Made by a program: the position numbers and the translations under genes. From Chloroflexota bacterium (GTDB lineage Bacteria > Chloroflexota > Dehalococcoidia > Dehalococcoidales > UBA2162): a stretch of DNA of 35,091 nt. Positions within the stretch are counted from its first letter, which is position 1. Each line of letters opens with the position of its first letter. Below, one piece after another: positions 1,092 through 24,488 of this stretch. The stretch lies in the NCBI GenBank assembly GCA_016193545.1, contig JACPSA010000041.1, forward strand, positions 1 through 35,091, written 5' to 3'. The notes under the pieces are model-generated. The model did no database searches and was not told the origin of the DNA. It saw only the letters and a program-made list of their open reading frames with translations.

Positions 1092-1142
1092 GTTCAGAGT
1101 TGACGAGGTGAAACTGGACGAACTGGAAAAGGTGAAGATGAT

Positions 1143-5323: not shown

Positions 5324-5341
5324 ATAGTTTATCACTGATGA

Positions 5342-5370
5342 ATAGTATCACCCCTAAATGGAAAAGTCAA
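5342..5370 (-). promoter_or_regulatory. Candidate sigma70-type promoter for the large Ala-rich gene
   Basis: In the minus sense: TTGACT (5370-5365), 17-nt spacer, TACTAT (5347-5342). It lies about 140 nt upstream of the ATG at 5204. Confidence 0.35.
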
Positions 5371-5377
5371 TATATAT

Positions 5378-5545: not shown

Positions 5546-5586
5546 TACTGCCACACGAAATACCGTATACTAACGAAGCCACAACA

Positions 5587-9935: not shown

Positions 9936-10844
9936 TTACTTCAGCATATCCTCGAATTTCTCCCAGCGCTCCTTGGTCTGCTGCGGGGGAATATGCACGA
10001 AATGGCATTTCATGCAGCTTTCGTTGCCTACGGCGCCCATCAGTTCTCCTATCGTTTTGGCATCAGGCGGAGTCGCGTCTACCGCTTTGCCAATCTGGTC
10101 AATCATGGCTAGTACGCTCGGGTCGACAAAGTAGGTTCTGGGCGTATTGTGACAGGCGGCACAACCCGCCGGCAGGGTCTTAAACCGGACACTAAACTCC
10201 TTAAAATGCTGGCGAGCCTTGTCCAGTTGTCCTTGCTGAAGGTCGTTGGACACTCCGCTAAAGCTGGTGGCTAGAGCTATCATATAGTCTCTCCAAGCCA
10301 TTGGTTTATTGGTTACCGGATCATTTACTTTGACTATCTTGAAATCAGGCCAGTGGTATTTCTGAAAAACTTTGCTCTGGAATAGCAAATGGCATGAGCC
10401 GCAAACCTCTCCTACCTGCCCCATGGCTGGCCCGACTTTGGCCGGGTCACCGCTGGCCAGGGCCTGGCCCAGAGTATCCACCGGGGTCATGGGAAACTTG
10501 TCCTTCCACTCCGGGACCATGTCGGACATTTTGATATATTGTTTCTGGAAAGCGTCAAAATTGGCTTTTGCCCCGGCAATATCTCCTTCCTGGAGGTCTA
10601 TTCCAATGCCCTCAAAGGGACCGGAAAGGCCGAACATTTCAAGTAAATAGACGGGGGCGGGGGCTTTAGGTGGGAAGAGATTGTCCAGCGACGCCGGCGG
10701 CGGTCCGGCAATTTCCCTGAGCATTTTGTTCTCCTCTGTCAGCTTGTCTACCTGAGGCTGGAGGTTCTGACCACAGGATACTAGAGCCGCCAGCAGCAGC
10801 ACCAGACTAGCGATGATACCTAATATCAGAATAGCTTTCTTCAT
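9936..10844 (-). CDS. Lipoprotein c-type cytochrome with three CxxCH heme-binding motifs
   Basis: The track ORF starts at TTG 10868. AGGGGG lies upstream of ATG 10844, giving MKKAILILGIIASLVLLLAALVSCGQ (signal peptide plus lipobox). The CxxCH motifs are CGSCH (10403-10389), CAACH (10163-10149) and CMKCH (10016-10002). Confidence 0.8.
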   Translation of the reverse strand: MKKAILILGIIASLVLLLAALVSCGQNLQPQVDKLTEENKMLREIAGPPPASLDNLFPPKAPAPVYLLEMFGLSGPFEGIGIDLQEGDIAGAKANFDAFQKQYIKMSDMVPEWKDKFPMTPVDTLGQALASGDPAKVGPAMGQVGEVCGSCHLLFQSKVFQKYHWPDFKIVKVNDPVTNKPMAWRDYMIALATSFSGVSNDLQQGQLDKARQHFKEFSVRFKTLPAGCAACHNTPRTYFVDPSVLAMIDQIGKAVDATPPDAKTIGELMGAVGNESCMKCHFVHIPPQQTKERWEKFEDMLK

Positions 10845-11139
10845 AATACTACCCCCTTCAATTCGCAAGAAATCGCAATAACAACATTACCTCTGACTGT
10901 AATTGCCCATCAGTCCTTATATGGGTAATGGTGAGCATACCACCAATATGTCAATCTGGGTATACTGAAAATAGCTCATTGTTGGCTACATAGAAGTGCC
11001 TGTTTCCTGACCTTAAGTGCGTATCATTATGGTAATGTGGTATCAGCAGGTAATACTTTCCGGCGTAACCAGCAGGCTTCATTCCAGTCAGCTTATTTCT
11101 AACTCTGACGTTGAAGCTGTTATATACATGAGGCTCGGC

Positions 11140-11949
11140 ATGGCTTATAATACCAGTATGGTTAGCCGACATTTAAGGGATAGGTATTCCAGGCAGACGA
11201 TGTTTCCCGGTATCGGCGAAGCCGGGCAGGCTAAATTAAGCCGGAGCAGTGCGGTTATCATCGGCTGTGGTGCGCTGGGCAGTAATATCGCCACTTTCCT
11301 GGTGCGCGCCGGCGTGGGTAAGGTCAGAATTGTCGATAGGGATTTCATTGAGTACCATAATCTGCAGCGTCAGGTTCTCTTTGACGAAGATGACATCAAG
11401 GCTGACCTGCCTAAAGCCATCGCCGCGGAGCGGTGTATTTCCCCTGTTTTGCCTCCCCCTGATGCCAGTCTTACCTGCGAGACGGCTGGAGTAGTGGGTA
11501 CGGCTCCGGCGGTTATTGCTTCTCTACAGGCTACCGAGGCGATAAAGATATTAGTTGGTGCTGAAAAGATAAAGCGGGAACTTATTGTCATCGATGTCTG
11601 GGAGGGTACTTTTCATAATCTTAAAGTAGAACCCCGTCCCGGGTGTCCTGCCTGCCGTGGACAATACGAGTTTCTGGAGACAAAGTTTGCCCTGAGAACC
11701 GTTTCACTTTGCGGGCAGAGTCGGGCGGTACAGGTGGTGAATACTAGGGTGAGTGAGATTGCCTTAGATGGACTGGCACGGCGACTCAGTAAGATAGGTA
11801 ATGTGAGCTGCAATGAGTTTATGCTCCGGTTTACCGCTGGTGATGACGAGATAGTTGTTTTTCCGGATGGGCGCGCCATCATTAAGAATACCATCGATGA
11901 ATCACAGGCCAGGGCGCTTTACTCTAAATATGTTAGTGATCTTGGTTAA
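11140..11949 (+). CDS. ThiF/MoeB/HesA-family E1-like adenylyltransferase, with an internal in-frame deletion of the core
   Basis: RYSRQTMFPGIGEAGQAKL, the GCGALGS nucleotide loop, VDRDFIEYHNLQRQ, then ...AAERCISPVLPPPDASLTCETAGVVG...CPAC. The start is placed at ATG 11140 (GAGG 6 nt upstream); the track ORF starts at 11017. Confidence 0.75.
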   Translation: MAYNTSMVSRHLRDRYSRQTMFPGIGEAGQAKLSRSSAVIIGCGALGSNIATFLVRAGVGKVRIVDRDFIEYHNLQRQVLFDEDDIKADLPKAIAAERCISPVLPPPDASLTCETAGVVGTAPAVIASLQATEAIKILVGAEKIKRELIVIDVWEGTFHNLKVEPRPGCPACRGQYEFLETKFALRTVSLCGQSRAVQVVNTRVSEIALDGLARRLSKIGNVSCNEFMLRFTAGDDEIVVFPDGRAIIKNTIDESQARALYSKYVSDLG

Positions 11950-13393
11950 GAGGTAGACTATTTTGCGTTTGCCTCCAGGCGACGAGCCGAGCCATTGCCC
12001 TGGCTGTCCGGCGCATTGAGTGGAATACCGGTAATCCGGCGGCCACGAACGCTTCCTGGGCGGTGAGAAATTCCTTCATACTCTCCAGGTCTGGTGGGGG
12101 ACGCAGTGCCAGCAGCACCGGCTTCCCTGTGGTTTGTTGTACTTCTCTGATGGCATCACTGACGGGTTTCAGATAAGTCTCTGCAGAGAAACGGCCGCCG
12201 CGCCAGCGGCTGACCGGGTGAAATCCCAGATGATAGATAAGCATATGAACATCGGGGACCCGGCCGACCACACGCAGCGCTGCCGCGATATTCTTTGGAG
12301 AGTAGATGGTGTCAGCATCCAACGGGTTGCTGAAGATACTGCCCGCCAGAGGCAAAAACCCTTTTAACTCTGACTGTGCTTCTGGAGAGAAAGGCGGCAG
12401 ATGAAGCCCGGCCTTCTCCATCTCGTCGGCTGCCTGAACACTGATGCCACCGCCGGCGCCGATAATAGCGACGCCGCTACCTTGCGGCAGGGGGTTGACA
12501 AACTGGAGTGCTACCAGCATGTCGGTTAGTTCTTCAATATCATCGACCTGAATCGCTTTCATTTGTCGGCACAGGGCGTTGAATACGGCGACTGAGCTGG
12601 TGAGACTGGCGGTATGGCTACGGGTGGTTCTGCGGCCGGCTTCAGTGGTGCCGCCTTTGCAGATAACTACCGGTTTGCGGGCGGTTGCTTCCCGGAGTGC
12701 CTTCACAAACCGCCTCCCATCCCTTACCCCCTCGATGTAGATGGCAATAATTCTGGTCTCCGGGTCTATGGAGAAATATTCCAGGAGTTCGCATTCATTT
12801 ACATCCAGGGCGTTGCCGTAGCTGACAATCTTACTGAAGCGTAATCCTCTCGGGCTGCCGAATAAAGGAATGTCCTCGACATAGCCGCCGCTCTGGGAGA
12901 TAACGGCAATCGGGCCTGGTTCCAGAGGTATTCTGATGTTGTTGACCAATCGGCTTTTTGGTACCATCAGTCCCAGGGAGTTGGGACCGATAATGCGAAA
13001 TCCGCCAGCTTTAGCCTTATCCAGCATGGCTTTTTCCAGCCCTGCCCGTTCTGTATTACCCGTCTCGCTGAAACCGGCGGTAAAAAAGTGGACTGACTTC
13101 ACACCCTTGGCGGCGCATTCGTCCAGCAGCTCCAGAACGGACTCAGCCCGAATACTGACGATTACATGGTCGACTGGCCCGGGGATGCTGCCAAGGCTGG
13201 GGTAACAGGGCAGTCCGAGCACCTCTTGATAATTCGGATTGACCGGATAGATATTCGGAAATTCAGCCTCTTTGAGGAACTGGAGGACTGAGGTGGCCCA
13301 GCCCCCTGATGGCGATGCACCGACGATAGCAACTCCGCGGGGGGAAAAAATCTCATCCAGTGATGGCTTCTCTTTTTTCGTCTGGTAAATCAT
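11933..13393 (-). CDS. ADP-forming acyl-CoA synthetase alpha subunit (CoA-binding plus CoA-ligase domains)
   Basis: 486 aa. It has the GVAIVGAS CoA-binding Rossmann start, ISQSGG, and a His loop GRRTTRSHTASL typical of the NDP-forming acyl-CoA synthetase / succinyl-CoA synthetase alpha superfamily. Confidence 0.8.
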   Translation of the reverse strand: MIYQTKKEKPSLDEIFSPRGVAIVGASPSGGWATSVLQFLKEAEFPNIYPVNPNYQEVLGLPCYPSLGSIPGPVDHVIVSIRAESVLELLDECAAKGVKSVHFFTAGFSETGNTERAGLEKAMLDKAKAGGFRIIGPNSLGLMVPKSRLVNNIRIPLEPGPIAVISQSGGYVEDIPLFGSPRGLRFSKIVSYGNALDVNECELLEYFSIDPETRIIAIYIEGVRDGRRFVKALREATARKPVVICKGGTTEAGRRTTRSHTASLTSSVAVFNALCRQMKAIQVDDIEELTDMLVALQFVNPLPQGSGVAIIGAGGGISVQAADEMEKAGLHLPPFSPEAQSELKGFLPLAGSIFSNPLDADTIYSPKNIAAALRVVGRVPDVHMLIYHLGFHPVSRWRGGRFSAETYLKPVSDAIREVQQTTGKPVLLALRPPPDLESMKEFLTAQEAFVAAGLPVFHSMRRTARAMARLVAWRQTQNSLPLNQDH

Positions 13394-13394
13394 A

Positions 13395-14402
13395 TCATTT
13401 TAACGAGGCAGGTAGCCGCAGTAGCCGACGTATGTTACCCTCAAATATCCTGGTCTTCTCGTTATTACCGATAGTCATTTGCTCGATGGATTGAATTGTT
13501 TGCCGGGTGTACCTTTCACCAACTTCACTGTCAAAGGGGAAATCAGTGGCGAACAACATATGGTCGGCACCGCAGAAAGCGTAACCACACATCAGGCCCG
13601 GCGTGCTGCCATAAATGGCGGTATCATAATAGAACATCTTAAAATACTCGATTGGCTCTTTAGTGAGACCTTCCTGGTACTTAGCGCCGCGCAGTATCGT
13701 GGCGTGGTCGTAGGCTCCGATTATTCTCTGTTCAAAAAATGGCACCATACCGCCACAATGATGTGTGATGAATTTGAGGTTGGGGTATTTCTCCAGTATG
13801 CCGCTGAAGACCAGCCGGGTAATAGCGACCGTGGTCTCATAAGGCCAGCCGAAGTTGCTGAATATCATGTATCTCGACCTTGTTTCCGTTTTATAGTCGG
13901 CATACCCGGCATCACGGTGAGGGTGAATCCATATCGGCAGGTCATAATGAGCCATCTTTTCATAGAGTGGCAGGAACTCGGGGGAGTCCAGGGGTTTATC
14001 GTTGATGGGTGTGAACAATTGTATCCCTTTGAGGTTCAAGTCGTTCACTGCTCTGTCCAGCTCTTTCAAAGCAGCTTCCATATTGTTCATCGGAAGACTG
14101 GCAACTGCCGCCGGGAATTTATCCGGGAACTTTAGCACCAGCTCTGCCATCTCATCATTGGCCATCCTGGCGAAATCTACCGCCTGCTGGGGGTTGGTAA
14201 AGTGTTCGATAGCGGGTGTGGATAAAGTTACCACGTGCTGTAGCCCCTCGAATTTGTTCATTATCCGGAATCTGTGCTCCAGGTTGAAGAGTGTCGGCAG
14301 CGTCTCAATGACATTTTGCAAATGAAAGCCGCGTGGATTGGCACGGTAAAGAGCCTCCTTGTATTTTGGGGGTAGAATATGAGCGAAGACATCTATTTTC
14401 AC
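13395..14402 (-). CDS. Amidohydrolase-2 family protein (ACMSD / hydroxyarylic-acid decarboxylase-like)
   Basis: 335 aa. It has MKIDVFAHILP at the N-terminus, IWIHPH, ITHHCGG and a C-terminal FATDFPF, matching the metal-dependent TIM-barrel hydrolase/decarboxylase pattern. The GTG start overlaps the upstream stop (GTGA). Confidence 0.75.
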   Translation of the reverse strand: MKIDVFAHILPPKYKEALYRANPRGFHLQNVIETLPTLFNLEHRFRIMNKFEGLQHVVTLSTPAIEHFTNPQQAVDFARMANDEMAELVLKFPDKFPAAVASLPMNNMEAALKELDRAVNDLNLKGIQLFTPINDKPLDSPEFLPLYEKMAHYDLPIWIHPHRDAGYADYKTETRSRYMIFSNFGWPYETTVAITRLVFSGILEKYPNLKFITHHCGGMVPFFEQRIIGAYDHATILRGAKYQEGLTKEPIEYFKMFYYDTAIYGSTPGLMCGYAFCGADHMLFATDFPFDSEVGERYTRQTIQSIEQMTIGNNEKTRIFEGNIRRLLRLPASLK

Positions 14403-16036
14403 CGTCTGGTCTCCTCTGGCTTTAGTTTTAGTATTAAGTCTTGAACTAATGCCATCTTGTCTATTTTCTGACCGTCAGATATCGTTGGCAGCTTATCGAC
14501 TATTTCTATCCTTTCCGGTATCTTGAACGGGGCAATTTTCTTCTTTTTCAGAAACGAGGCTAAATCTTCCAGTGTCAGCGTTTTCTTTCCGTTCAATACA
14601 ATGTAAGCACAAGCCTTTTCTCCCATCACGCTATCCGGCATGGCAACAACGGCGACGCTACGGATGTTCGGGTGAGTAATCAACAGGCTTTCCATCTCGC
14701 TGGGGTAAATGTTCTGGCCGCCCCGTATGATAATATCCTTCTTACGGCCGACGATTATCAGGTTTCCAGTATCATCCAGTTTGCCCAGATCTCCGGTAGC
14801 AAACCATCCCTCTTTAGTCCAGGTCTCTTGTGTAGCCTTGGCATCCCGGTAGTATCCCGATGCGGAATTTGGTCCTTTTGCCAGCACTTCACCTACTGTG
14901 CTTTGACCGGTCTCCCGACCGCTATCGTCGGTTATTTTGATGGTGACCCCGAGACAGGGTTTGCCGACGGTAAATGCTCGCACAGCGAAAGAATCTTCCG
15001 GCCGGGAAATGGAGATGGCTCCGAAGTCGACGGCGCCGTACTGGCTGATGACAACTCCGCCCATTTTTTTCTCTACTGCCGAGGCCAGAGATGGAGACAA
15101 CGGGGAGCCGGCACACAACCAGATGCGCACGGAACTTAAGTCATAAGCCTGGTTGTCGATTTCTGCCAGCATCATTGACAGTTGAGTCGGCACCAGGCAG
15201 GCGACGGTAACCCTTTTTTGTTTGATTGCCCACAGGGCCTCACTGGCACCGAGCCAGGGTACCATAACTATACTGGCAGCTACCTGAGGCGCTGAATAGT
15301 ACACGGCCACATTAGGACCGCGCGAAGCCGGAGAAATGGCGGCGACGATATCGTTTCTGGTTAAACCCAGGGCATCGGCTAAATACTGGCCACCGTTGGT
15401 GCCGGCACCTGCCGGGTACTCGACCAGCTTCGGGGAACCGGTCGTGCCGCTGGTGAGGAGGACTGTGGAAACTTCATCTGGCCGGTAGCGTAGGTGTTCC
15501 AGATAATCCGGGTTGTATTGTTTTTCCAGCGGCTTTTGCACCATACTGTCGATAAAAGTTCCACCACCGCCGGCGATAAGTACCTGTCTGAGCATGGGTA
15601 GCTCATGGCGGATGTTGTTGGCCATGTTGACATAATCGAAACCACGGAACTCCCGGGTGACAACCAGCGCTACTGCCTCTGTGTAGTTTGAGATATATTT
15701 CATCTCACTTTCCCGCATGTTGCTCAATACGGGGACACAAAGTATGCCGGCCTTTTCACAGGCTACCCGTAATAAATGGAGTTCCAAACTGTTCGGTAGC
15801 TGGACTACCAGCGCCTCGTCCCGGTTGATGCCCATCTCGATAAGCCCGAGAGCCACTCTGTCAATCCAGGTCTTGGCCTCTGCCCAGGTATATTCTACGG
15901 TCAGGTCGGCGATGGCTTTTTGCCGGGGGTGCTGCTCCGCATTTCTATCCCATAAGTTGGAAATAGTAGTCTGCCAGACTCCGCTCTTGACCAGTCTGTC
16001 AATTTCCTGGCTGGTGTACCGTGTTGGCTTAGCCAT
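14399..16036 (-). CDS. AMP-dependent acyl-CoA/aryl-CoA ligase (ANL superfamily)
   Basis: 545 aa with LLTSGTTGSPKLV, GWFATGDLG and GRKKDIIIRGGQNIYP motifs. Confidence 0.9.
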   Translation of the reverse strand: MAKPTRYTSQEIDRLVKSGVWQTTISNLWDRNAEQHPRQKAIADLTVEYTWAEAKTWIDRVALGLIEMGINRDEALVVQLPNSLELHLLRVACEKAGILCVPVLSNMRESEMKYISNYTEAVALVVTREFRGFDYVNMANNIRHELPMLRQVLIAGGGGTFIDSMVQKPLEKQYNPDYLEHLRYRPDEVSTVLLTSGTTGSPKLVEYPAGAGTNGGQYLADALGLTRNDIVAAISPASRGPNVAVYYSAPQVAASIVMVPWLGASEALWAIKQKRVTVACLVPTQLSMMLAEIDNQAYDLSSVRIWLCAGSPLSPSLASAVEKKMGGVVISQYGAVDFGAISISRPEDSFAVRAFTVGKPCLGVTIKITDDSGRETGQSTVGEVLAKGPNSASGYYRDAKATQETWTKEGWFATGDLGKLDDTGNLIIVGRKKDIIIRGGQNIYPSEMESLLITHPNIRSVAVVAMPDSVMGEKACAYIVLNGKKTLTLEDLASFLKKKKIAPFKIPERIEIVDKLPTISDGQKIDKMALVQDLILKLKPEETRR

Positions 16037-16107: not shown

Positions 16108-17094
16108 TTAATCCAGTACCTTCAGACCGGTGTTATTGGCGTGGGTAATGAAGCAAGTACCGCCCATATTCTTATCCAGGAAACGGCGTGCCTTCTGCTC
16201 AAGGTCGGACAGGTCTTCCCCGAAAGCGAAGATGGCTGCCCCCCAGCTGCTCATGCCGACGCCAATGCCGCCATTCTGTTTCAGAAAGTCCTTGCACTGT
16301 AGAATGTTATGTGATTGGGCACGAAATTCGAACTTTTTGAAGCCGTATTTCTGCGTTTCCTCAAGGGCAGAGCCGAATGATTCCAGGTCTCGTTCCAGGA
16401 TAGCTGGCAGCATCTTGAGCAGTATCAGGTGGCAGATTGTCTGCACTTCGCTCAGCGGTACCGGACAGACGACTTTAAAGATTTGGACCTCGTGGATACC
16501 GGCCGTCTGCTCACCGGTGGGAATACAGATTAAGATGTCCCAGTCGGGGAAATCATAGTGTGCCAGCACCGGCGGCGGCATCAGGCCGCGTACGGCGGAA
16601 GAGGGAGTATACTCGCTCTTGCTGTTGGCGACGCCGTCGGCACGGAATTTATGACCGCCATCGAGGATAAACCCACCATGTTCGATGCTGGCGACTCCGA
16701 TGCCTGATGTGCCGCCGCGGTTCACTACCGAGCCTAACTCGGCAGCACTCACCGAGCGTCCGGCTAGATGGCAGAGTACTTTAGCCACTCCCACCATCAG
16801 TTGTGTGCCGCTGCCCAGACCCACATGGACTAAGGGCCGCTCTTCGATAACGATTTTAGCCGGCGGGAGGTCATAGCGTTGTATTACCGCCTGGGCCCCC
16901 TCATAGGCACGCTTAGCCACCGCCGGGTCGGGCGGATACTCAACCTCCAGGCGGTTGTTTTTTTTGGCATAAATCACAGTTTGGGGGTCTTCAAGGGTAA
17001 TGCCCGTGCCGCCATCGATACGTCCGATTTCTCCATTAAGGTCAATCAATCCCAGATGCAGACGGGAAGGAAAGGCAATTCTAACTTCATTCAT
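16108..17094 (-). CDS. beta-Ribofuranosylaminobenzene 5'-phosphate (beta-RFAP) synthase family protein (GHMP superfamily)
   Basis: 328 aa. PSRLHLGLIDLNGEIGRIDGGTGITLE, VGLGSGTQL, NRGGTSGIGV, GGFILDGGH and GFKKFE match the family blocks as I recall them for archaeal MptG-type enzymes. Confidence 0.7.
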   Translation of the reverse strand: MNEVRIAFPSRLHLGLIDLNGEIGRIDGGTGITLEDPQTVIYAKKNNRLEVEYPPDPAVAKRAYEGAQAVIQRYDLPPAKIVIEERPLVHVGLGSGTQLMVGVAKVLCHLAGRSVSAAELGSVVNRGGTSGIGVASIEHGGFILDGGHKFRADGVANSKSEYTPSSAVRGLMPPPVLAHYDFPDWDILICIPTGEQTAGIHEVQIFKVVCPVPLSEVQTICHLILLKMLPAILERDLESFGSALEETQKYGFKKFEFRAQSHNILQCKDFLKQNGGIGVGMSSWGAAIFAFGEDLSDLEQKARRFLDKNMGGTCFITHANNTGLKVLD

Positions 17095-17098
17095 ATTG

Positions 17099-17905
17099 TT
17101 ATCTCCTTGTTCGTGTTTTCAGCGCCTTACCGGCTTCCTCAATGCTCAATCCCTGGTGAATCATTCGCCAGACGATATCCAGAAGTTCCGCTGGGCGAGC
17201 GCTTTGCCAGATGTTTCGTCCCATGACAATGCCCCGGGCGCCGCCCTTTAAAGCGCCGTTAATCATGTTGAGAGTGTCCAGGTCGGTATCGCACTTAGGC
17301 CCGCCGGCAATCATCACCGGCACCGGGCAGCCCGCGATAACCCGGTTGAAATCCTGGGGCGTATAGTATGTCTTGACCATGTCTGCCCCGTGCTCGACGG
17401 CGACACGTGCTCCTAGGGCCAAATACTGGGGGTCGAGCATTCTGTTTTCCATTGTCTTGCCCACACCCAGCACACCGAGCAGGGGCAGGTCATACTGGTG
17501 GCATTCGTCGGCTAGGTAGGCCATATTCATCAGTGTCTCATGCTCATTGGGGGAGCCGATAAAAGCGGTTGTAGCCAGGGCGTCAGCCCCGAGCCGAAGC
17601 GCCGTGTCTACGCTGGTGGTCAGTCCTTCATTGGTGAGGTCTTCACCGGCGATGGTGGCGGCGCCGCTGGCGCGCAGGATTATGCCCTGCCGGCCATCAG
17701 GCTCGAAGCAGGTGGTCAGTATTCCTTTAGTTATTAGCCAGGCATCTACTTTGCCGGTGGCGGACAGGGTGCGGATAGTCCTGGCGATATCGACCAGACC
17801 TGTCGTTGGCCCCAGCGCCATTCCGTGGTCTACGGCGATAATGAGTCCTTTGCCGCTGGCCGGGTTCAAGATGCGGTTCATGCGGTTTCGTTTACCTACT
17901 GTCAT
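17099..17905 (-). CDS. DhnA-type class I aldolase family protein (FbaB / ADH synthase AroA' / LsrF-like)
   Basis: 268 aa. LIIAVDHGMALGP, GADMVKTYYT (Schiff-base Lys context), CPVPVMIAGGPK and GRNIWQ closely parallel archaeal 2-amino-3,7-dideoxy-hept-6-ulosonate synthase-type proteins. Confidence 0.75.
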   Translation of the reverse strand: MTVGKRNRMNRILNPASGKGLIIAVDHGMALGPTTGLVDIARTIRTLSATGKVDAWLITKGILTTCFEPDGRQGIILRASGAATIAGEDLTNEGLTTSVDTALRLGADALATTAFIGSPNEHETLMNMAYLADECHQYDLPLLGVLGVGKTMENRMLDPQYLALGARVAVEHGADMVKTYYTPQDFNRVIAGCPVPVMIAGGPKCDTDLDTLNMINGALKGGARGIVMGRNIWQSARPAELLDIVWRMIHQGLSIEEAGKALKTRTRR

Positions 17906-17935
17906 TCCGCTTGTCTCCTTAGACCCTAGTTCTCG

Positions 17936-18964
17936 TTAGATAAGCACAACCGCCTTGAGTAGATTATGTTCTCGTGTCTGCTGCACAGCATCGAGCAGCT
18001 TGTCCAGGCTAACGCGGTGGGAGATGATTTTCTCTACAGGCGCTTTTCCGGTGGAGATGAGACGGAGCGCCTGTTTAAAATCCGGCAGTGAAGACCCGAA
18101 GGTGCCGGTGAGTATAATCTCGCCGTAGTGCAGCCATCTGGGGTCGATGGTCAGGCGGGAACCCTTTGGCGCACCGCCAAAGATGTTGAATACTCCCGCA
18201 TTCCGTACCATGGGCAAATATTTTTCCATGACCTCGGTCGAACCCAGTGCGGCAATGACCAGGTCGGCGCCAATCTCGGTAATGGAGCGTACTGCCTGAA
18301 CAGGGTCGGTTTTACCGGCATCGATGACTTTCTCTGCTCCCAACTCTCGTGCTTTATCCAGGCGCTCCGGGATGACGTCGATAACGATAGTACGTGCGCC
18401 CTGCGCCTCAGCCGTCAGCAGGTGGAGCAGTCCCATAGGGCCGGCGCCGATGATGGCTATCCAGTCTCCTTTAGCGACTCCGGCGGAGCGGAAGGCGCTG
18501 AGGCAGCAACTGAGGGGTTCAGTCATGGCTGCCAGCTCCATGGAGAGGGAATTCTTAATAGGTAAGATACCCCCTAGGTCCACCAGAGTTTTGGGAATGC
18601 GGACATATTCAGCGAAACCACCGTCGGCGCCGTGTGCCAGGCCAAATTCGTGGAGGCAGAGGCTATGTCGTCCCCGACGGCAGAAGAAACATTCTCCGCA
18701 CGAGGCTATGGGGTAGACGGCAACCCTCTGGCCGGTGGTTAATTCCTTAACGCCAGCGCCGACTTCGTGTACCAGCCCGGCGACTTCATGTCCCAGAATA
18801 GTCGGTAAATTTCGGGGTGTGCTCTCACCGGACAAAATCTTGACATCGGTAGTGCATATTCCGCAGGCTTTTACTTCGATGACCACTTCCCCGGGCAGGG
18901 CGTGCGGTGTCTCCACCTCCTGGTAACGGAGGTCATTCTCACCATATAGTACGGCTGCTTTCAT
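17936..18964 (-). CDS. Zn-dependent medium-chain alcohol/polyol dehydrogenase
   Basis: 342 aa with GHEVAGLVHEVG, the structural-Zn cysteines CGECFFCRRGRHSLC, and the GAGPMGLL Rossmann loop. Confidence 0.9.
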   Translation of the reverse strand: MKAAVLYGENDLRYQEVETPHALPGEVVIEVKACGICTTDVKILSGESTPRNLPTILGHEVAGLVHEVGAGVKELTTGQRVAVYPIASCGECFFCRRGRHSLCLHEFGLAHGADGGFAEYVRIPKTLVDLGGILPIKNSLSMELAAMTEPLSCCLSAFRSAGVAKGDWIAIIGAGPMGLLHLLTAEAQGARTIVIDVIPERLDKARELGAEKVIDAGKTDPVQAVRSITEIGADLVIAALGSTEVMEKYLPMVRNAGVFNIFGGAPKGSRLTIDPRWLHYGEIILTGTFGSSLPDFKQALRLISTGKAPVEKIISHRVSLDKLLDAVQQTREHNLLKAVVLI

Positions 18965-18967
18965 TTA

Positions 18968-19672
18968 TTATCTTTTTATCGGGACGACTCTGCGGATAGC
19001 CAACATTAGCTGGTGTAGCTTCTTGGCGTCTTTATGTCCGGGGGTGCTTTCTACCCCGTTGCACAGGTCGATGCCGTAGGGACGGACGAGTTCGATGGCG
19101 GACTGGATATTCTGCGGGTTGATGCCACCGGCCAGAAAAGTCCGTACCGAAGTAGCTTGCACCAGCTTGCGGGCAATATCCCAGTTGCTCACCTGACCGG
19201 TCCCGCCATAGCGCCGGTTACCCTGTGGTGAGCTGGCTACGGTATCGATAAGTATGGCATCGATACCGGCATCAATCAGGGAATCTATCCTGTGCCGGTA
19301 TTCAGCGATATCGATTTCTCCCAGGCCACGGGGTGGGAGGTGGATAGATTTCCACAATTCACAGGTCACAATGTTTTTGAGATTCTTGACTAAAGAAGGT
19401 GGTTCTTGCCCTAAAAGTTGCACGGCATGGGGATGCAAAGTGGATACCATTTTCTGTATCTGCTTCGCCGACCAGTTGAAAACCACCGTGACTACCGGTA
19501 GGGTCGACTGCTGGCAAATCGGCAGCGCCTGTTCTACGGTTAAGCGTCGCGGCGAGTAATCAATCTCGATAATGACGCCGATATAATCGGCACCAGCTTC
19601 CGCGGCCAAACGGGCGTCATCGATACTGGTGATACCGCAAACTTTTACCTTGACTTTTTTTTGAGCGGACAA
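18968..19672 (-). CDS. trpF: Phosphoribosylanthranilate isomerase (TrpF)-like protein, outside any trp operon context
   Basis: 234 aa with VKVCGITSIDDARLAAEAGADYIGVI...FLAGGINPQNI... No trpC, trpB or trpA neighbours are present in the window. Confidence 0.75.
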   Translation of the reverse strand: MSAQKKVKVKVCGITSIDDARLAAEAGADYIGVIIEIDYSPRRLTVEQALPICQQSTLPVVTVVFNWSAKQIQKMVSTLHPHAVQLLGQEPPSLVKNLKNIVTCELWKSIHLPPRGLGEIDIAEYRHRIDSLIDAGIDAILIDTVASSPQGNRRYGGTGQVSNWDIARKLVQATSVRTFLAGGINPQNIQSAIELVRPYGIDLCNGVESTPGHKDAKKLHQLMLAIRRVVPIKR

Positions 19673-19699
19673 AGCGACCTAGCGGAAAATACGCCGCAG

Positions 19700-19721
19700 T
19701 GTCAATCCGCTTGTCAATCGG
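19700..19721 (-). promoter_or_regulatory. Tandem direct repeat GATTGACA x2 in the 64-nt gap upstream of the trpF-like gene (candidate internal promoter or operator)
   Basis: The minus sense reads cCGATTGACAagcGGATTGACActgcggcgTATTTT. The plus-strand copies of tgtcaatc are at 19700-19707 and 19712-19719. Confidence 0.3.
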
Positions 19722-19736
19722 ATGTTATCCTGGCCA

Positions 19737-22229
19737 TCAGCCTAGATGTAACAGGCGCTTGAGCAGGGCACGGTAGACATCACGCCAGGACTGCTGCAGC
19801 CTTATCTCCTGTAGCAGGAATAACGTCTTTCTGGGGCTGAACCGGCTCTGTATGTAAGCCTGGGCGATATCATCGATAGCTTCAGTCTGTGCCGGAATAA
19901 CCGACGCCAGCCGGGTACAGTATTCCAGGGGTGTCTCGTACGGGTTGGGTCCCGATTTGACTAATGAAGCCAGCCAGCTCATCCTGGCATAAACATTGAA
20001 GGCGTTGTCGGCTCCGGTGAAGCGCCGCAGCCAGCGATAAAGGAGTATTGCCGCAGCCAGCATCACTAATAGCTGGATACTGATTGTGGGGAAAGGTGTG
20101 ACTTGCCCCGGCTTTTTAGAGAGGCTGTTATCATCCGAGGCAGCACCCGAGGGGCCGCCTAGCTCGTCTTCATCTTCAGAAGTGGCAATGCTGGAGTTGG
20201 CGTTTGTTTCATCGGGGATGTTTACCTGGTTTTCCAGACGGGTAGTCGCCTCGAATTCTACCCAGCCGTAGCCGGGGAAGTAAATCTCCGGCCAGGCATG
20301 ATAGTCCCTTGCTCGTACGATAAGCTTGCCGGTATTTTTATCTAATTTGCCGTGGAGATAGCCGGTATTGAGCCGGGTGGGTACGCCTATTGAACGGAGC
20401 ATAACGGCCATGCTTGAGGCGAAGTTGACACAATCGCCCTCTTGCTGCTTGAAGATAAAATAGTCTACAGGGTCGACCTCTGCCGGAAAAGACTCCACCG
20501 CTTCGTTATATTTGAACCTGTTGAGGAAGCGTTTAATAATTATCGCTTTGTCATAGGCCGTTACAGCTCCCTCGGTAAGTTCTTTGCTGAAGCGTTTGAC
20601 ACGTTCCGGGAGACTGTCAGGTAATTGCAGATAGTAATCAATAATCTGCTGAGTATAGTTGTCGCCGGCTTGAGACAGTTCGTCAGGTGTGGCAGTAAGA
20701 GTGCTGGCTGTCAGTTCATAGCGCTGATTAGGTTTTAGCAGTTGTGGTGCGATGATGGCAACAATGTCTCCGGCGTTTCCATGTGCCTGGCTTGTTCCAT
20801 CTGTGGTTATGTTATTGCTCTGGGGTATTAACCCGGGGATACCTGGTGGTGGGAGGCTGGAACTATCGGTGACGCTGCCCGGCGGTATGTTCGCTGGCTG
20901 AGGTTCTTTAGTCTTGTTTAGCTCCGGTAGCGTATCTACCGGCGGTGGAACTTGTCCGGAGGGAGCAGGCAAGGTCTCATTTGTAGAAGGAATGGAGTCA
21001 GCAGTGGTGGCCGGTAAGATGGTGTTGGGTATAGACGCTGTAGAAGTCTCCAGTAAAACCGGGATATTGGTAGATACAAATTCGCCGGCAGTCAGCAGGA
21101 CATCTGTTTTTAGTCTGGTTTCCACGGTATACGTCATCTTCTGGCGTTTAGGTGCCTCGGTTTCAGTGATAGGTGTTTCCGGTTTGAGCATGTGATTGGT
21201 CATAGCATTGCTGGTCCATCCCCAGGAGTAGTAAGTATCGTACCTTCTGGTGCGCCAGTAAGAAGGCCGCTCAGCGGTAATGACGAATTGTATCTCATTA
21301 CTGTAGTCGATATTATCGCTGAAAGATAGTTTTTCTTGGTCACTGCTTCTGATGATATTCCATTTTCCGGGCACGGCAGCAAAGAGATTTAACCAGTAAT
21401 TTTCGGCATTCTTCGCCCAGGGGATGGCGGCGTTAGTCACGGTTTCCAGCTGCTTAACCTGGATTTCAGGTGTGAACCAGGCGCTGGAAACGGTCAGAAG
21501 GCTGATAATAACTACTGAAGCGGTGAAGTAGACCATACCATGTTTAGGATAATCGGTACCATATTTCTGGAATTGGCTATGTTCTCGGTACAGATTTGTC
21601 AAGCCAATCAATAACATTGACATTAAGAAATAAATAATGAAGAAGTGATAGTATTGTTGAGTCAGATTAGCAAGATTGACCAGAATGATAATGGCGCCCA
21701 GAGAAACTGCTACCCACGCATTTTGTTTGCGCAAGATTAGCCATGTTGAGATATTACCCGTCAGCCAGCTGAGGAAAACAAGAAATACGGCGAAGTGCAG
21801 TATTCCCTCGCTGGGCTTGGTCAGGCTGATTGCCTGCCACCAGGACTTCAAAATAGCTATCAAGTGATTAGAGTCCGGAGTGGTGTCCGGCAGGGGTAAG
21901 AGAATAGCTGTTTGCCACACGGTAATCACAACTCCGAGGACTATGATGATGGAAAGTGTTACGGCATTATGAACTCGGGTTTTGACCAGTAGCCAGACGG
22001 TCAGTATGGCCAGGCTGAGGACCAGTGTCAGCGATGGTTGCGGTGTTATCCACTGGGCTTGCTCAACGGAACGCAGAGCGATAGCTAGAGTCAGAAAAAC
22101 AAGCAAGACGCTTACCCACTCTGGCCCGCTGCCCAGCCAGAACCTGAGACCCGATGGCAATAGTCGGTATCTTCGGGTTATTCCGGTCAAATAAGCTATG
22201 AATCTGCTTTCTTTCTGGTTCCTATTCAA
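19737..22229 (-). CDS. Transglutaminase-like (TgpA-type) multi-pass membrane protein
   Basis: 830 aa. It has N-terminal polytopic TM helices and a Pro/Ser/Thr-rich low-complexity segment. The transglutaminase core is QQEGDCVNFASSMAVMLRSIGVPTR ... DYHAWPEIYFPGYGWVEFEAT. A C-terminal TM helix follows. Confidence 0.85.
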   Translation of the reverse strand: MNRNQKESRFIAYLTGITRRYRLLPSGLRFWLGSGPEWVSVLLVFLTLAIALRSVEQAQWITPQPSLTLVLSLAILTVWLLVKTRVHNAVTLSIIIVLGVVITVWQTAILLPLPDTTPDSNHLIAILKSWWQAISLTKPSEGILHFAVFLVFLSWLTGNISTWLILRKQNAWVAVSLGAIIILVNLANLTQQYYHFFIIYFLMSMLLIGLTNLYREHSQFQKYGTDYPKHGMVYFTASVVIISLLTVSSAWFTPEIQVKQLETVTNAAIPWAKNAENYWLNLFAAVPGKWNIIRSSDQEKLSFSDNIDYSNEIQFVITAERPSYWRTRRYDTYYSWGWTSNAMTNHMLKPETPITETEAPKRQKMTYTVETRLKTDVLLTAGEFVSTNIPVLLETSTASIPNTILPATTADSIPSTNETLPAPSGQVPPPVDTLPELNKTKEPQPANIPPGSVTDSSSLPPPGIPGLIPQSNNITTDGTSQAHGNAGDIVAIIAPQLLKPNQRYELTASTLTATPDELSQAGDNYTQQIIDYYLQLPDSLPERVKRFSKELTEGAVTAYDKAIIIKRFLNRFKYNEAVESFPAEVDPVDYFIFKQQEGDCVNFASSMAVMLRSIGVPTRLNTGYLHGKLDKNTGKLIVRARDYHAWPEIYFPGYGWVEFEATTRLENQVNIPDETNANSSIATSEDEDELGGPSGAASDDNSLSKKPGQVTPFPTISIQLLVMLAAAILLYRWLRRFTGADNAFNVYARMSWLASLVKSGPNPYETPLEYCTRLASVIPAQTEAIDDIAQAYIQSRFSPRKTLFLLQEIRLQQSWRDVYRALLKRLLHLG

Positions 22230-22242
22230 GACTCGCTGTACC

Positions 22243-23469
22243 TCAAATATATCTCGTGTGCAGGGAGGCGACTCTGTTATCCAGAGCTCTGGCTAATTCG
22301 TCTCCTTTTCTGACGGTATAGACTTGGATGCCGTTGGCACTAAGGTTGTGTGCGGTGTTTAGTTGGCCGGCGGTACCGCCAAAGCTGGCTGGTTCGAGCA
22401 GGATAGCCACTGCCAGGTTGTCACGGCCTTTGAGCTGCCGGATAGCGGTCACCATCTCTTTACTGTCTGAAGGTGTGATAACAACGGCGATAGAATTGCC
22501 GTTAAAGTGTTCCATCTGGCTGGAAATCAATTGGCTGACGGGTGTCTCTCCGCTTGCTTTCATTAAGGCGAGGGCTTCCATCAGTCGCCCCAAGTGTTGC
22601 TCTCCCCTCTCAGGTGGGAAAAAGTAAGGTCGGTCGCCTGAAGCCGTCAATCCCACCTGCATGCCGCTATCGATATATTTTTTTATGAGAGAAGCGGCAA
22701 TAGTGATAGCATATTCTTCGGTGGTCTCGTCGCCTTCACCAAGTTGAGGGGCCTGTTGCATATCGATGATAATCCAAACGCTTTCCGAACCGCTATGAGA
22801 ATGGTCAGTATCAAACATCTTGACCATTAGCTTGCCGGCGTGAGCGGTACTGTGCCAGTGGATGTGGTTAAGACTGTCGCCGGTAGTGTATTCTCGTACG
22901 CTGGAGGCATTAGGACTGATTTGACTAAATGACCGGTAGCCGGAGTTATAACCGAAGACACTGAGAGGCGATGATTCAAAGAAGGGTAATTGCAGTGTTG
23001 CCGGGTAGATAAGGATAGGGTGTGATTTTCCCAGGTTTCGTTGCCGGGAGAAAAGACCGAACGGGTCCGTGGCGGTAACAGTAATCGAGCCCAGGCTGTA
23101 TTGGCCCCGGCGTCGGCAATGAACATTGCTCTGCCAGCAGTAAGAGCCTCCCGCAGGCAAATTCAATACCGTCATGTTGTGATATCCCGGTATATCGGTA
23201 GTCTCGGCTACTTTAAGCAATAGTTTGGGTAACTTGCTCTGGTTGAATAGAGTCACTTCTTTGTCGAATCGCTCACCAACCTGGCAATTGTCCGGCGGTT
23301 GACTAGCTTGAATCCTGATACCACGCAGTCCGAACAGTGCCCACAGGTAGCTGATTAAAAGTACCAGTGCTAGAAGGACGGAGAGTCTCAATACCAGTAC
23401 CAGACCCTCAGCTAGAGCTAGAAACAGGAGAATCGGGAGCAGGATAAAAATGATAGTTCGGATTTTCAT
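22243..23469 (-). CDS. DUF58 (vWA-like) protein
   Basis: 408 aa with two N-terminal TM helices and the DUF58 signature VREYTTGDSLNHIHWHSTAHAGKLMVKMFD. Confidence 0.85.
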   Translation of the reverse strand: MKIRTIIFILLPILLFLALAEGLVLVLRLSVLLALVLLISYLWALFGLRGIRIQASQPPDNCQVGERFDKEVTLFNQSKLPKLLLKVAETTDIPGYHNMTVLNLPAGGSYCWQSNVHCRRRGQYSLGSITVTATDPFGLFSRQRNLGKSHPILIYPATLQLPFFESSPLSVFGYNSGYRSFSQISPNASSVREYTTGDSLNHIHWHSTAHAGKLMVKMFDTDHSHSGSESVWIIIDMQQAPQLGEGDETTEEYAITIAASLIKKYIDSGMQVGLTASGDRPYFFPPERGEQHLGRLMEALALMKASGETPVSQLISSQMEHFNGNSIAVVITPSDSKEMVTAIRQLKGRDNLAVAILLEPASFGGTAGQLNTAHNLSANGIQVYTVRKGDELARALDNRVASLHTRYI

Positions 23470-23522
23470 AGTTTTGATGCGGAGATTGTATTTAGTGACA
23501 AACCGCCTGAGCCAGTATCGTT

Positions 23523-24488
23523 TTACCTTTTGGCTTTGGCAAATGTTCCGGGTACGGGTACCGTTTCCAGTAGTTCATCAATAGTAACTTTACCATCCTT
23601 ATCCTGTGAATCTGACGAGTGGACTATTATCCGATGAGCCAGGACCGGTTTGGCTAAAATTTTGACGTCATCCGGTAAAACAAAGTCGCGTCCCTGGATT
23701 AAAGCATAGGCCTGGGCGGTGCGGAAAAGACCTAAAGCACCCCGGGGGGAAGCTCCCAGGTGTATCATCGGATTATGGCGTGTTGCGGCCACCAATGCTA
23801 CGATGTACTGCTTTACTAAATCATCCACGTAAATAGCCTTCACGGCTTGCTGAAGCGTCAAAACGTCAGCCGCATTAGCCACCGGACTAAGTTGTTCGAT
23901 AGGATGAGTATACTGTTGTTTTTCCATAATGGTTATTTCGTCAGCTGGAGATGGATAGCCCAGAGATATCCGGAGCAGAAACCTGTCCAGTTGTGTCTCC
24001 GGAAGGGGGAAAGTGCCTTCATATTCTATGGGATTTTGGGTGGCTAAAATGTGAAAGGGAGGAGGTATCTGATGGGTAACACCATCTACGGTCACTTGTC
24101 CTTCCTCCATACATTCCAAGAGAGCTGATTGAACCTTGGGTGTAGCCCGGTTGATTTCGTCAGCCAGGACTATTTGTGCCATGATTGGACCGGGGCGAAA
24201 CTCGAAGTCGGCTGTTTTCTGGTTATAGACCGAAACTCCGGTAATGTCGCCGGGCAGCATATCAGGAGTGAACTGGATTCGCTTGAATGTGCAATCTATG
24301 GATTTGGCCAGGCTGCGGGCGAGCATGGTCTTACCAACGCCCGGAGCGTCCTCGATAAGCAAATGCCCTTTGGTAGTCAAAGCTATTACGGCCAGCACGA
24401 TTGCTTCCTTCTTGCCGAGAATGACTGTCCCCATGTTATCTATTATTTTCTCGGCCATCTTTTGTGCTGCTTTTGTTGAGTTCTCCAT
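23523..24488 (-). CDS. moxR: MoxR-family AAA+ ATPase
   Basis: 321 aa with Walker A APGVGKTMLA, Walker B VLADEINRA, and the ATQNPIEYEGTFPLPETQLDRF block. Confidence 0.9.
   Translation of the reverse strand: MENSTKAAQKMAEKIIDNMGTVILGKKEAIVLAVIALTTKGHLLIEDAPGVGKTMLARSLAKSIDCTFKRIQFTPDMLPGDITGVSVYNQKTADFEFRPGPIMAQIVLADEINRATPKVQSALLECMEEGQVTVDGVTHQIPPPFHILATQNPIEYEGTFPLPETQLDRFLLRISLGYPSPADEITIMEKQQYTHPIEQLSPVANAADVLTLQQAVKAIYVDDLVKQYIVALVAATRHNPMIHLGASPRGALGLFRTAQAYALIQGRDFVLPDDVKILAKPVLAHRIIVHSSDSQDKDGKVTIDELLETVPVPGTFAKAKR

Follow-up and report, generated by a model that had tools for sequence, protein, structure and literature searches.

A conserved bacterial four-gene module that may build an aromatic C-ribotide and dismantle its sugar

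A 35,091-nucleotide stretch of DNA from a Chloroflexota bacterium (contig JACPSA010000041.1 of assembly GCA_016193545.1; hereafter the window) carries, at positions 16108-19672, a quartet of minus-strand open reading frames (ORFs) for a TrpF-like isomerase, a Zn-dependent dehydrogenase, an LsrF/DhnA-type aldolase and a beta-RFAP-synthase-type GHMP protein. The recurrence of these genes as neighbours across bacterial phyla supports the view that they make up a real functional unit, one that stands apart from trp, shikimate and methanopterin contexts. We propose, with a probability of about 0.4, that the quartet is a self-contained pathway that would build an aromatic C-ribotide and then dismantle its sugar to arylacetyl-coenzyme A (arylacetyl-CoA) and dihydroxyacetone phosphate (DHAP). 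As read from the ORF listing and the sequence, the four genes are:

18968-19672, minus strand: TrpF-like (PRAI family) isomerase, 234 aa, TTG start
17936-18964, minus strand: Zn-dependent medium-chain dehydrogenase of the polyol/threonine-dehydrogenase type, 342 aa
17099-17905, minus strand: LsrF/DhnA-type class I (Schiff-base) aldolase/thiolase, 268 aa
16108-17094, minus strand: beta-RFAP-synthase-type GHMP protein, 328 aa

The intergenic gaps within the quartet are 3, 30 and 4 nt. This spacing had been given in an earlier reading of the DNA made without database searches (the sequence-only reading), and both the ORF listing and the sequence bear it out; the four family assignments made there were upheld by Pfam and NCBIfam searches. 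The same reading had remarked that none of the genes sits in its textbook context, and this also stands, as no Pfam match to trp, shikimate, aroB' (3-dehydroquinate synthase II) or methanopterin families was found among the submitted window ORFs of at least 150 aa. By its homologues the contig belongs to Dehalococcoidales/Chloroflexota.

Conservation of the four genes as neighbours

We surveyed the neighbourhood from two seeds. The first survey used a GHMP protein alignment as its seed, took one genome per species and returned 80 loci. A TrpF-like gene adjoins the GHMP gene on the same strand in 58 of them, and the dehydrogenase gene is also present in 28 of those 58. The pair of GHMP and TrpF-like genes is thus the most conserved core of the module, followed by the pair with the dehydrogenase. 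The fourth gene varies among the 28 loci, being an aldolase in 6, a metallo-beta-lactamase-fold protein in 2 and absent from the adjacent positions in 20. The GHMP gene stands without a partner in the other 22 of the 80 loci, including all 12 methanogen loci and those of Poribacteria.

For the second survey the aldolase served as seed and metagenome contigs were searched, with counts limited to loci that had enough flanking DNA. Here the dehydrogenase gene lies directly upstream of the aldolase gene in 47 of 50 loci, a TrpF-like gene is present in 36 of 39 and a GHMP gene in 20 of 21. The three exceptions (L167, L168 and L170) represent the most distant aldolase group, at 54% identity, and lie in an lsr-like sugar operon.

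The neighbour grouping recurs in well over 100 loci from at least seven bacterial phyla, and this conservation across phyla places it far beyond chance. The order is PRAI, dehydrogenase, aldolase, GHMP in the window and in some Deltaproteobacteria, and GHMP, PRAI, dehydrogenase, aldolase in other lineages, while the flanks of the module are unrelated in most genomes. The rearranged order and the unrelated flanks point to a self-contained functional module. The sequence-only reading had asked for such a survey and had counted a quartet with no counterpart in other genomes as grounds for giving up the idea; the four genes are kept as neighbours in many genomes.

Carriers were found in Chloroflexota (Dehalococcoidales, Caldilineaceae and Anaerolineales), Thermodesulfobacteriota, Acidobacteriota (Solibacteraceae), KSB1, Latescibacterota, Gemmatimonadota and Firmicutes. 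They include abundant uncultured lineages from sediments or associated with sponges as well as cultured anaerobes, the latter being Desulfobacter postgatei (CM001488.1, about 571883-575747) and Pelotomaculum thermopropionicum SI (AP009389.1, about 618003-621773). At the level of the aldolase protein alone, very close homologues also occur in Desulfosarcina ovata, Desulfosarcina cetonica and Desulfobacter curvatus.

We then clustered every ORF lying up to 7 kb from 58 non-Caldilineaceae module loci, about 480 kb of flank. No further partner family common across lineages emerged from this flank clustering, apart from indolepyruvate-type ferredoxin oxidoreductase (IOR; three loci) and Amidohydro_2 proteins (window lineage only). 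Several apparent clusters were discarded as antisense ORFs or as synteny among close relatives, and an ABC transporter, a WD40 protein and DNA polymerase III alpha near the Caldilineaceae and Poribacteria genes were likewise judged to be lineage synteny. Neither in the window nor in twelve other carrier loci read from their gene tables (L001, L003, L084-L090 and L171-L173) is there an adjacent trp gene, or a pterin- or tetrahydromethanopterin (H4MPT)-dependent gene beside the module, and no gene of the latter kind recurs in the flank clustering. The high-GC loci L007 and L008 were read from tblastn matches and the gene calls of the collection.

Family placement and conserved residues of the four proteins

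The window GHMP protein matches the Pfam GHMP_N/C domains and lies above the equivalog cutoff for beta-RFAP synthase (NF040726, 354 bits against 328; TIGR00144, 312 bits against 113.5). Its closest solved structure is the C-glycoside synthase ForT (PDB 6YQQ), and its identity to the beta-RFAP synthase homologues from Methanomicrobiales and other methanogen loci is 42-46%. The bacterial 330-aa clade agrees with six methanogen sequences at 25-26 of the 27 conserved positions checked; the mismatches are W284, for which all six methanogen sequences have Phe, and Q98, where two of them differ. No variation was seen at D18, R25, T129, E202 and K253, either within the bacterial clade or among the methanogen homologues. 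Among these kept residues are the equivalents of Thr138, the essential Glu211 and Lys263, the catalytic residues of ForT (PMC9832568), and of Asp19 and Arg26 of MTH0830, which affect the Km for 4-aminobenzoate (PMC6787355).

By these comparisons the GHMP protein groups with the beta-RFAP and C-glycoside synthases and is not predicted to be a sugar kinase. It is probably a decarboxylative C-ribosyl transferase that depends on phosphoribosyl pyrophosphate (PRPP) and acts on a 4-amino- or 4-hydroxybenzoate-like acid; the class of enzyme has good support, and we infer the exact acid. The equivalog model, ForT as the nearest structure and the kept catalytic residues all agree with the beta-RFAP-synthase-like assignment of the sequence-only reading, and the clustering with ordinary sugar kinases that had been named there as a ground for rejection is not seen.

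In most metagenomic modules, as well as in D. postgatei and P. thermopropionicum, the first gene encodes a divergent GHMP protein of 398-436 aa that has an N-terminal extension of about 60 residues and is about 23% identical to the window protein. The gene for this form of about 400 aa lies just upstream of the TrpF-like gene in L102, L118, L124, L129, L134, L145, L149, L155, L171, L172 and L173. Its best NCBIfam match is still beta-RFAP synthase, at 76-96 bits and below the cutoff, and it keeps Arg11, His13, Asp18, Arg25, Glu202 and Lys253. This form may use a different aromatic or heteroaromatic acid. Further beta-RFAP-synthase-type genes, 43-53% identical to that of the window, were found in L044-L055, L063 and L066 (Poribacteria and another bacterium), L006 and L010, where neither a TrpF-like gene nor a dehydrogenase or aldolase gene adjoins them. 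The gene that follows in L010 is acetyltransferase-like (GNAT type), as judged by sequence only. Since such genes occur without the module partners, the aryl C-ribotide may have other fates in bacteria.

The TrpF-like protein belongs to PF00697 (PRAI, E 8e-31) and reaches none of the 13 TrpF equivalog cutoffs of NCBIfam, with 146.6 bits against 215 as its best score; the module copy in L129 is likewise below the TrpF cutoffs. The Cys of the KxCG motif and the Asp of the xxDT/S motif do not vary among 30 module copies and correspond to Cys7 and Asp126 of Thermotoga maritima TrpF. The same 30 copies keep the equivalent of Arg36 in the beta2-alpha2 loop of the T. maritima enzyme and the phosphate-binding GG and SGVE motifs of TrpF. 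Module TrpF-like proteins are further marked by a clade-specific, invariant DLCSGVE motif and an insertion before the catalytic Asp.

The dehydrogenase consists of GroES-like and Rossmann domains (Pfam ADH_N and ADH_zinc_N) and reaches no NCBIfam equivalog cutoff. Its closest solved structures are an uncharacterised Zn dehydrogenase (4EJ6) and alcohol, threonine and sorbitol dehydrogenases. The Zn motifs, comprising the catalytic Cys/His/Glu and the structural four-Cys site, are conserved (GxCxTD, LGHE, CGxCxxC...LC and EPxxC). An acidic residue at the end of strand beta-2 indicates a cofactor site of the NAD(H) rather than the NADP(H) type.

The aldolase belongs to PF01791, which agrees with the DhnA-type assignment of the sequence-only reading, and can be narrowed to an LsrF-like protein. 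Its best NCBIfam match is the LsrF thiolase model, where it scores below the cutoff (NF006081, 264 against 297 bits); other module aldolases score 268 on this model and the lsr-like outgroup 293. It also lies below the cutoffs for 2-amino-3,7-dideoxy-D-threo-hept-6-ulosonate (ADH) synthase, or AroA' (TIGR01949, 198 against 299; PRK07226, 233 against 241), and below that for fructose-bisphosphate (FBP) aldolase. The closest solved structures are Escherichia coli LsrF (185 bits) and then the ADH synthase MJ0400 (171 bits). Conservation across phyla is high, with 75% mean column identity (alignment A2). In that alignment K178, D26, H27, G201, G202, G229 and R230 are invariant or nearly so, and they align to Lys203, Asp57, His58, Gly226, Gly227, Gly253 and Arg254 of LsrF. 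In LsrF, Lys203 forms the Schiff base, Asp57 is the base, His, Gly and Arg residues form a phosphate cradle, and the distinctive Asp251 lies next to the Schiff-base Lys (PMC2728841). The catalytic Tyr found in AroA' and in archaeal FBP aldolase is missing from the module aldolase, as it is from LsrF, with GVGK in place of the YPRGK of MJ0400, and the EH motif of LsrF is present. The module aldolases form a separate LsrF-like clade that is neither LsrF nor AroA'.

No lsrK, lsrG, lsrACDB or lsrR gene was found beside the module, and lsr-like context occurs only in the outgroup loci L167, L168 and L170. In L167 the outgroup operon (79-8780) encodes a DeoR/LsrR-type regulator, a Zn dehydrogenase, an LsrF-like protein, a sugar ABC transporter and a second DeoC-family gene. 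The Zn dehydrogenase of this operon is 36% identical to that of the module, and its LsrF-like protein reaches 293 bits against the cutoff of 297. Since both occur in the outgroup operon, a dehydrogenase and an LsrF-like enzyme may have come to be paired before the aryl module arose.

A separate observation concerns L129, which carries two copies of the Rfam TwoAYGGAY RNA motif (9654-9811, minus strand, and 17495-17651, plus strand; 45-46 bits against a gathering cutoff of 43). One copy sits in the spacer between the module dehydrogenase and aldolase genes.

Proposed pathway and alternatives

In the pathway that we propose, the GHMP enzyme would join PRPP to a 4-amino- or 4-hydroxybenzoate-type acid, giving an aryl beta-C-ribofuranoside 5'-phosphate with release of CO2 and pyrophosphate (PPi). 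The Cys/Asp acid-base pair of the TrpF-like enzyme would then open the furanose through a quinone-methide-type intermediate, which should be feasible because of the para electron-donating amino or hydroxy group on the aryl ring. Loss of the C2 proton would lead through an enol to 1-aryl-1-deoxy-D-ribulose 5-phosphate, in what amounts to a vinylogous Amadori rearrangement. The dehydrogenase would oxidize the C4 hydroxyl with NAD+ to yield 1-aryl-3-hydroxy-2,4-pentanedione 5-phosphate, the aryl analogue of 3-hydroxy-2,4-pentanedione 5-phosphate (P-HPD). LsrF itself converts P-HPD and CoA to DHAP and acetyl-CoA (PMC7828210), and by analogy the LsrF-like Schiff-base enzyme would split the diketone into DHAP and an arylacetyl unit passed to CoA. 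The net reaction would be ArCOOH + PRPP + NAD+ + CoA -> ArCH2CO-SCoA + DHAP + CO2 + PPi + NADH. The arylacetyl-CoA could undergo reductive carboxylation by IOR followed by transamination to aromatic amino acids, or it could be taken up by acyl-CoA synthetases such as those encoded downstream in the window.

A substrate-product relation between the GHMP and TrpF-like enzymes is the simplest reading of the pair, because the GHMP product is a carbon analogue of the TrpF substrate and the two genes form the most conserved core. The direction follows from the first step, which is decarboxylative, PPi-releasing and irreversible, so that the aryl ribotide would be made before it is dismantled. The sequence-only reading had suggested that the quartet might make or dismantle a phosphoribosylated aromatic compound. 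That the four genes form a real unit holds, and the proposed order of steps fits the kept catalytic residues; making or dismantling can be narrowed, as we infer it, to making followed by dismantling. Of the two outcomes left side by side there, cleavage or reduction, cleavage after oxidation is favoured since the aldolase is LsrF-like and the dehydrogenase site is of the NAD type, and simple reduction is disfavoured.

Genes next to the module bear on its substrate and product. In the window lineage the same-strand run extends past the quartet by three accessory genes to seven in all, following the quartet after a gap of 71 nt and separated from one another by a 4-nt overlap and a gap of 1 nt. 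The seven genes occur in identical order in the relative locus L001. The three lineage-specific accessory genes are:

14399-16036, minus strand: aryl-acid AMP-forming ligase (AMP-binding and AMP-binding_C domains)
13395-14402, minus strand: Amidohydro_2 decarboxylase-like protein (PF04909)
11933-13393, minus strand: ADP-forming acyl-CoA synthetase alpha-like protein (PF13380, PF13607 and PF02629)

The closest solved structures to the AMP ligase are salicylate-AMP and 2,3-dihydroxybenzoate-AMP ligases, and a ligase occupies the matching position in L001 and L002. The Amidohydro_2 protein falls in the non-oxidative (hydroxy)aryl-acid decarboxylase subgroup, its solved relatives including alpha-amino-beta-carboxymuconate-epsilon-semialdehyde (ACMS), gamma-resorcylate, 5-carboxyvanillate, 2,3-dihydroxybenzoate and salicylate decarboxylases, and its gene adjoins the module only in the window, L001 and L004/L084. 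The acyl-CoA synthetase alpha-like protein combines CoA-binding and succinyl-CoA-ligase-like domains, scores 318 bits on the acetate-CoA ligase alpha model TIGR02717, below its cutoff of 567, and has a counterpart in the matching position in L001.

In the KSB1 locus L003 the quartet is followed on the same strand by genes for IOR alpha, a ferredoxin, IOR beta, a PaaK-type arylacetate-CoA ligase and an aminotransferase, with solute symporters flanking both sides. PaaK and IorAB genes follow the aldolase gene in L142, an aminotransferase gene and IorBA are convergent to the quartet in L097, and IorAB lies 4 kb upstream of the module in L008. IOR, PaaK and aminotransferases interconvert arylacetyl-CoA, arylpyruvate and aromatic amino acids, and an anabolic role of IOR in anaerobic aryl-acid assimilation is established from work on Methanococcus maripaludis and rumen bacteria. 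The aryl-acid genes together with the IOR, PaaK and CoA-synthetase neighbours suggest that the module takes in aromatic acids and puts out an acyl-CoA. The association with IOR, PaaK and aminotransferase genes is seen in four separate contexts, a minority of lineages. A broader claim is more doubtful than the pathway itself, namely that decarboxylative C-ribosylation, as a widespread and undescribed bacterial pathway, lengthens an aromatic carboxylic acid by one carbon and feeds tyrosine-type synthesis in anaerobes through ferredoxin-dependent reductive carboxylation.

Several observations weigh against the proposed making and dismantling of an aryl C-ribotide. The steps assigned to the TrpF-like enzyme, the dehydrogenase and the aldolase are read from chemistry. 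The aldolase falls short of the LsrF cutoff, and LsrF Asp251 is replaced by an invariant Val227 in the module aldolases (GIVMGRN against GVDMGRN in LsrF); because of these two features CoA-dependent thiolysis is not secured, and a plain retro-aldol reaction is possible. Thirty Caldilineaceae loci have only the GHMP and PRAI genes, and 20 further loci with GHMP, PRAI and dehydrogenase genes lack an adjacent aldolase. In L012 and L013 a metallo-beta-lactamase-fold gene (Lactamase_B_3) follows the GHMP, PRAI and dehydrogenase genes in place of the aldolase, and in L086 such a gene follows the GHMP and dehydrogenase genes, with no adjacent PRAI gene recognised. This variant, found in Latescibacterota, Gemmatimonadota and one further lineage, is encoded at:

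L012, 9211-9900: metallo-beta-lactamase-fold (Lactamase_B_3) gene
L013, 12683-13372: metallo-beta-lactamase-fold (Lactamase_B_3) gene
L086, 12107-12778: metallo-beta-lactamase-fold (Lactamase_B_3) gene

Most modules stand alone, with no IOR or CoA genes nearby, and to our knowledge D. postgatei and similar carriers are not degraders of aromatic compounds. An arylacetyl unit obtained at the cost of one PRPP is expensive. The Arg by which TrpF binds the carboxylate of anthranilate is conserved, and the true substrate of the TrpF-like enzyme could accordingly retain a carboxylate.

Four other explanations were weighed. The dehydrogenase could reduce the ketose to 1-(4-aminophenyl/4-hydroxyphenyl)-1-deoxy-ribitol 5-phosphate, the methanopterin side-arm unit, which would then enter a bacterial cofactor or metabolite, the fourth gene (aldolase or metallo-beta-lactamase-fold) serving a later or side step. 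Such biosynthesis of an aryl-deoxypentitol phosphate draws on the GHMP protein, which passes the equivalog model and nearly matches its methanogen homologues at the conserved sites, and on the survey counts, where the GHMP and PRAI core (58 loci) and its extension by the dehydrogenase (28) come with a variable fourth gene (6, 2 and 20, as above). A phosphatase step reportedly follows the reduction in R. H. White's methanopterin scheme, and the metallo-beta-lactamase-fold protein of L012, L013 and L086 could be a phosphatase of this kind. As of 2011, seven proteins of methanopterin biosynthesis were still counted as unknown (PMC3087415); if this explanation were true, the ring-opening and reduction step of methanopterin-type side chains, so far unassigned, would gain a candidate in the module. 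We nevertheless consider it unlikely. Neither the window nor the twelve other carrier loci have a pterin or H4MPT gene next to the module, none of the 12 methanogen loci has a TrpF-like neighbour, and the dehydrogenase site is of the NAD rather than the NADP type. Moreover, reduction would leave the Schiff-base aldolase without a carbonyl to act on, yet the aldolase is paired with the dehydrogenase in 47 of 50 loci. Rather less likely again is an AroA'-type retro-aldolase or transaldolase acting directly on the 2-ketose, which would give a 1-aryl-3-hydroxyacetone unit (free or transferred) and glycolaldehyde phosphate and leave the dehydrogenase to act on a fragment. ADH synthase acts on a 1-deoxy-2-keto-3-hydroxy unit, the local structure of the proposed intermediate. 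The ADH synthase scores of the aldolase come near those for LsrF (233 against the PRK07226 cutoff of 241; 171 bits to MJ0400 against 185 to LsrF), and in place of the missing Asp251 of LsrF it has a small hydrophobic residue, as aldolases do. Against this stand the missing catalytic Tyr of AroA' and archaeal FBP aldolase (GVGK for YPRGK; PMC2728841), a phosphate cradle of the LsrF/FBP aldolase type, the lack of a nearby aroB' or other partner to supply an acceptor aldehyde, and a strictly co-occurring dehydrogenase left with no necessary role.

An explanation with no aromatic compound at all, which we consider improbable, would make the module a sugar salvage route resembling the DHAP shunt for 5-deoxyribose and 5-methylthioribose from radical-SAM enzymes, with the GHMP protein as a sugar kinase. 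The kinase, isomerase, aldolase and alcohol dehydrogenase logic of that shunt matches the quartet one for one, the GHMP superfamily includes anomeric sugar kinases, the first gene is mostly the divergent protein of about 400 aa with 23% identity to that of the window, and the module is a stand-alone operon in strict anaerobes rich in radical-SAM enzymes. Yet the window GHMP protein passes the beta-RFAP synthase equivalog and keeps the Thr, Glu and Lys of the C-glycoside synthases, and even the longer form matches beta-RFAP synthase best and keeps Glu202, Lys253, Arg11, His13, Asp18 and Arg25. TrpF chemistry needs an electron-donating substituent at C1 and a 5-phosphate, and would not act on a 1-phosphate sugar. 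The shunt's own sugar kinase or phosphorylase, MtnA-type isomerase and class II aldolase families are all missing from the quartet, and genes for aryl acids and arylacetyl-CoA recur beside the module. Least credible of all is a chance run of four unrelated housekeeping genes, comprising a real trpF, a glycolytic or AroA' aldolase and independent dehydrogenase and GHMP genes. The public annotations as phosphoribosylanthranilate isomerase and fructose-bisphosphate aldolase would agree with this, as would the intact catalytic residues of TrpF. The neighbourhood is, however, kept in at least seven phyla with rearranged order and unrelated flanks, no trp gene adjoins it in the window or the twelve other carrier loci, the TrpF-like protein is under every TrpF cutoff, and the aldolase is under the FBP aldolase, AroA' and LsrF cutoffs. 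The neighbourhood survey comes close to refuting this explanation.

On its upstream side the module is bounded in the window by the following spacer:

19673-19736, minus strand: 64-nt spacer 5' of the first quartet gene, parting the module from MoxR/DUF58/transglutaminase genes

This spacer is presumed to be the start of the transcription unit. The upstream boundary of the module is drawn solely from the spacing and from the changed gene content in relatives. No sigma-70-like site above background was found in the spacer, the promoter and terminator consensus scans giving background levels, and an Rfam scan that covered the window along with five module loci revealed no riboswitch or leader upstream of the module. 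The genes directly upstream form a separate unit and do not belong to the module, since they are missing from the related loci L001 and L084. The other features seen in the window are:

19737-24488, minus strand: three-gene unit for a MoxR-type AAA+ ATPase, a DUF58 protein and an 830-aa transglutaminase-like/DUF4129 protein
11017-11949, plus strand: ThiF/MoeB-family adenylyltransferase gene, convergent with the seventh gene of the run and overlapping its 3' end by 17 nt
9936-10868, minus strand: 310-aa protein with a weak cytochrome c'-type heme-site match, beyond the ThiF/MoeB gene
3489-5204, minus strand: 571-aa protein, Ala/Glu/Lys-rich, highly repetitive and coiled-coil-like, with no Pfam match
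31190-31263 and 35002-35072, both minus strand: two tRNA genes (Rfam scan)

The ORF of the 571-aa protein contains 89-nt and 54-nt tandem repeats, and this repetitive ORF accounts for the strongly negative AT skew in 2001-5000 (-0.35 to -0.52) and for the GC content there, which rises to 0.62.

Relation to known systems

Each protein of the quartet is a new member or subclade of a known family, and the combination matches no pathway that we know of. Full-text searches found no description of the module, with thin coverage of subscription journals that leaves its absence from the literature unproven; to this extent the sequence-only reading, which did not recognise the pathway as a described bacterial one, agrees with the literature. 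The module genes carry public names such as phosphoribosylanthranilate isomerase, fructose-bisphosphate or AI-2 (autoinducer-2) aldolase and methanopterin-pathway synthase, and these annotations are probably misleading.

If the quartet does make and dismantle an aryl C-ribotide, beta-RFAP synthases would not be limited to methanopterin synthesis and C-nucleoside antibiotics, TrpF-type enzymes would be able to process C-ribosides, and LsrF-type cleavage would be a general means of harvesting DHAP from 1-substituted pentulose phosphates. The beta-RFAP synthase, TrpF and LsrF families would gain a new joint physiological role, and widespread automatic annotations of the module genes would be corrected. 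The hypothesis is directly testable because cultured carriers exist. The putative module pathway as a whole would combine a reaction that opens methanopterin and C-nucleoside biosynthesis, one that TrpF performs in tryptophan biosynthesis and one that closes AI-2 degradation.

MptG (MJ1427, MTH0830), the beta-RFAP synthase, catalyses the first step of the non-pterin arm of methanopterin biosynthesis. The window GHMP protein is of the same family and probably catalyses the same type of reaction, in which PRPP and 4-amino/4-hydroxybenzoate yield an aryl C-ribotide, CO2 and PPi. It differs in being bacterial and in lacking methanopterin or H4MPT genes nearby; its TrpF-like neighbour is missing from the methanogen loci, and many modules have the divergent form of about 400 aa. 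Of the ForT- and PrfT-type C-glycoside synthases of formycin and pyrazofurin biosynthesis, ForT has its catalytic Thr138, Glu211 and Lys263 matched by equivalents in the window GHMP protein, and it shows that the GHMP/beta-RFAP family works outside methanopterin synthesis. Ser21 and Gln266 of ForT, which hold the retained carboxylate of the pyrazole dicarboxylate, are His and Glu in the window protein. The products of ForT become nucleosides with no ring-opening or cleavage, and ForT itself belongs to actinomycete secondary-metabolite clusters.

With TrpF of tryptophan biosynthesis the module isomerase has in common the fold and family, the Cys base, the Asp acid, the loop Arg and the GG and SGVE motifs. 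It is set apart by its scores below the cutoff on all 13 models, its lack of trp context, the DLCSGVE motif and the insertion; its proposed substrate is a C-riboside rather than an N-riboside, and the reaction would be the carbon analogue of the Amadori rearrangement. The closest characterised relative of the module aldolase is LsrF, the CoA-dependent thiolase that ends the degradation of AI-2 in E. coli through phosphorylated 4,5-dihydroxy-2,3-pentanedione (P-DPD) and P-HPD. The proposed module substrate is the 1-aryl analogue of P-HPD, and the products, DHAP and an acyl-CoA, would be alike. The module aldolase differs from LsrF in its score below the cutoff, in the change of Asp251 to Val and in having no adjacent lsrK, lsrG, lsrR or lsrACDB. 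Finally, aryl-acid salvage by arylacetate-CoA ligase, IOR and an aminotransferase uses arylacetyl-CoA, the proposed product of the module; that known route starts from free arylacetates, whereas the module would start from aryl carboxylates.

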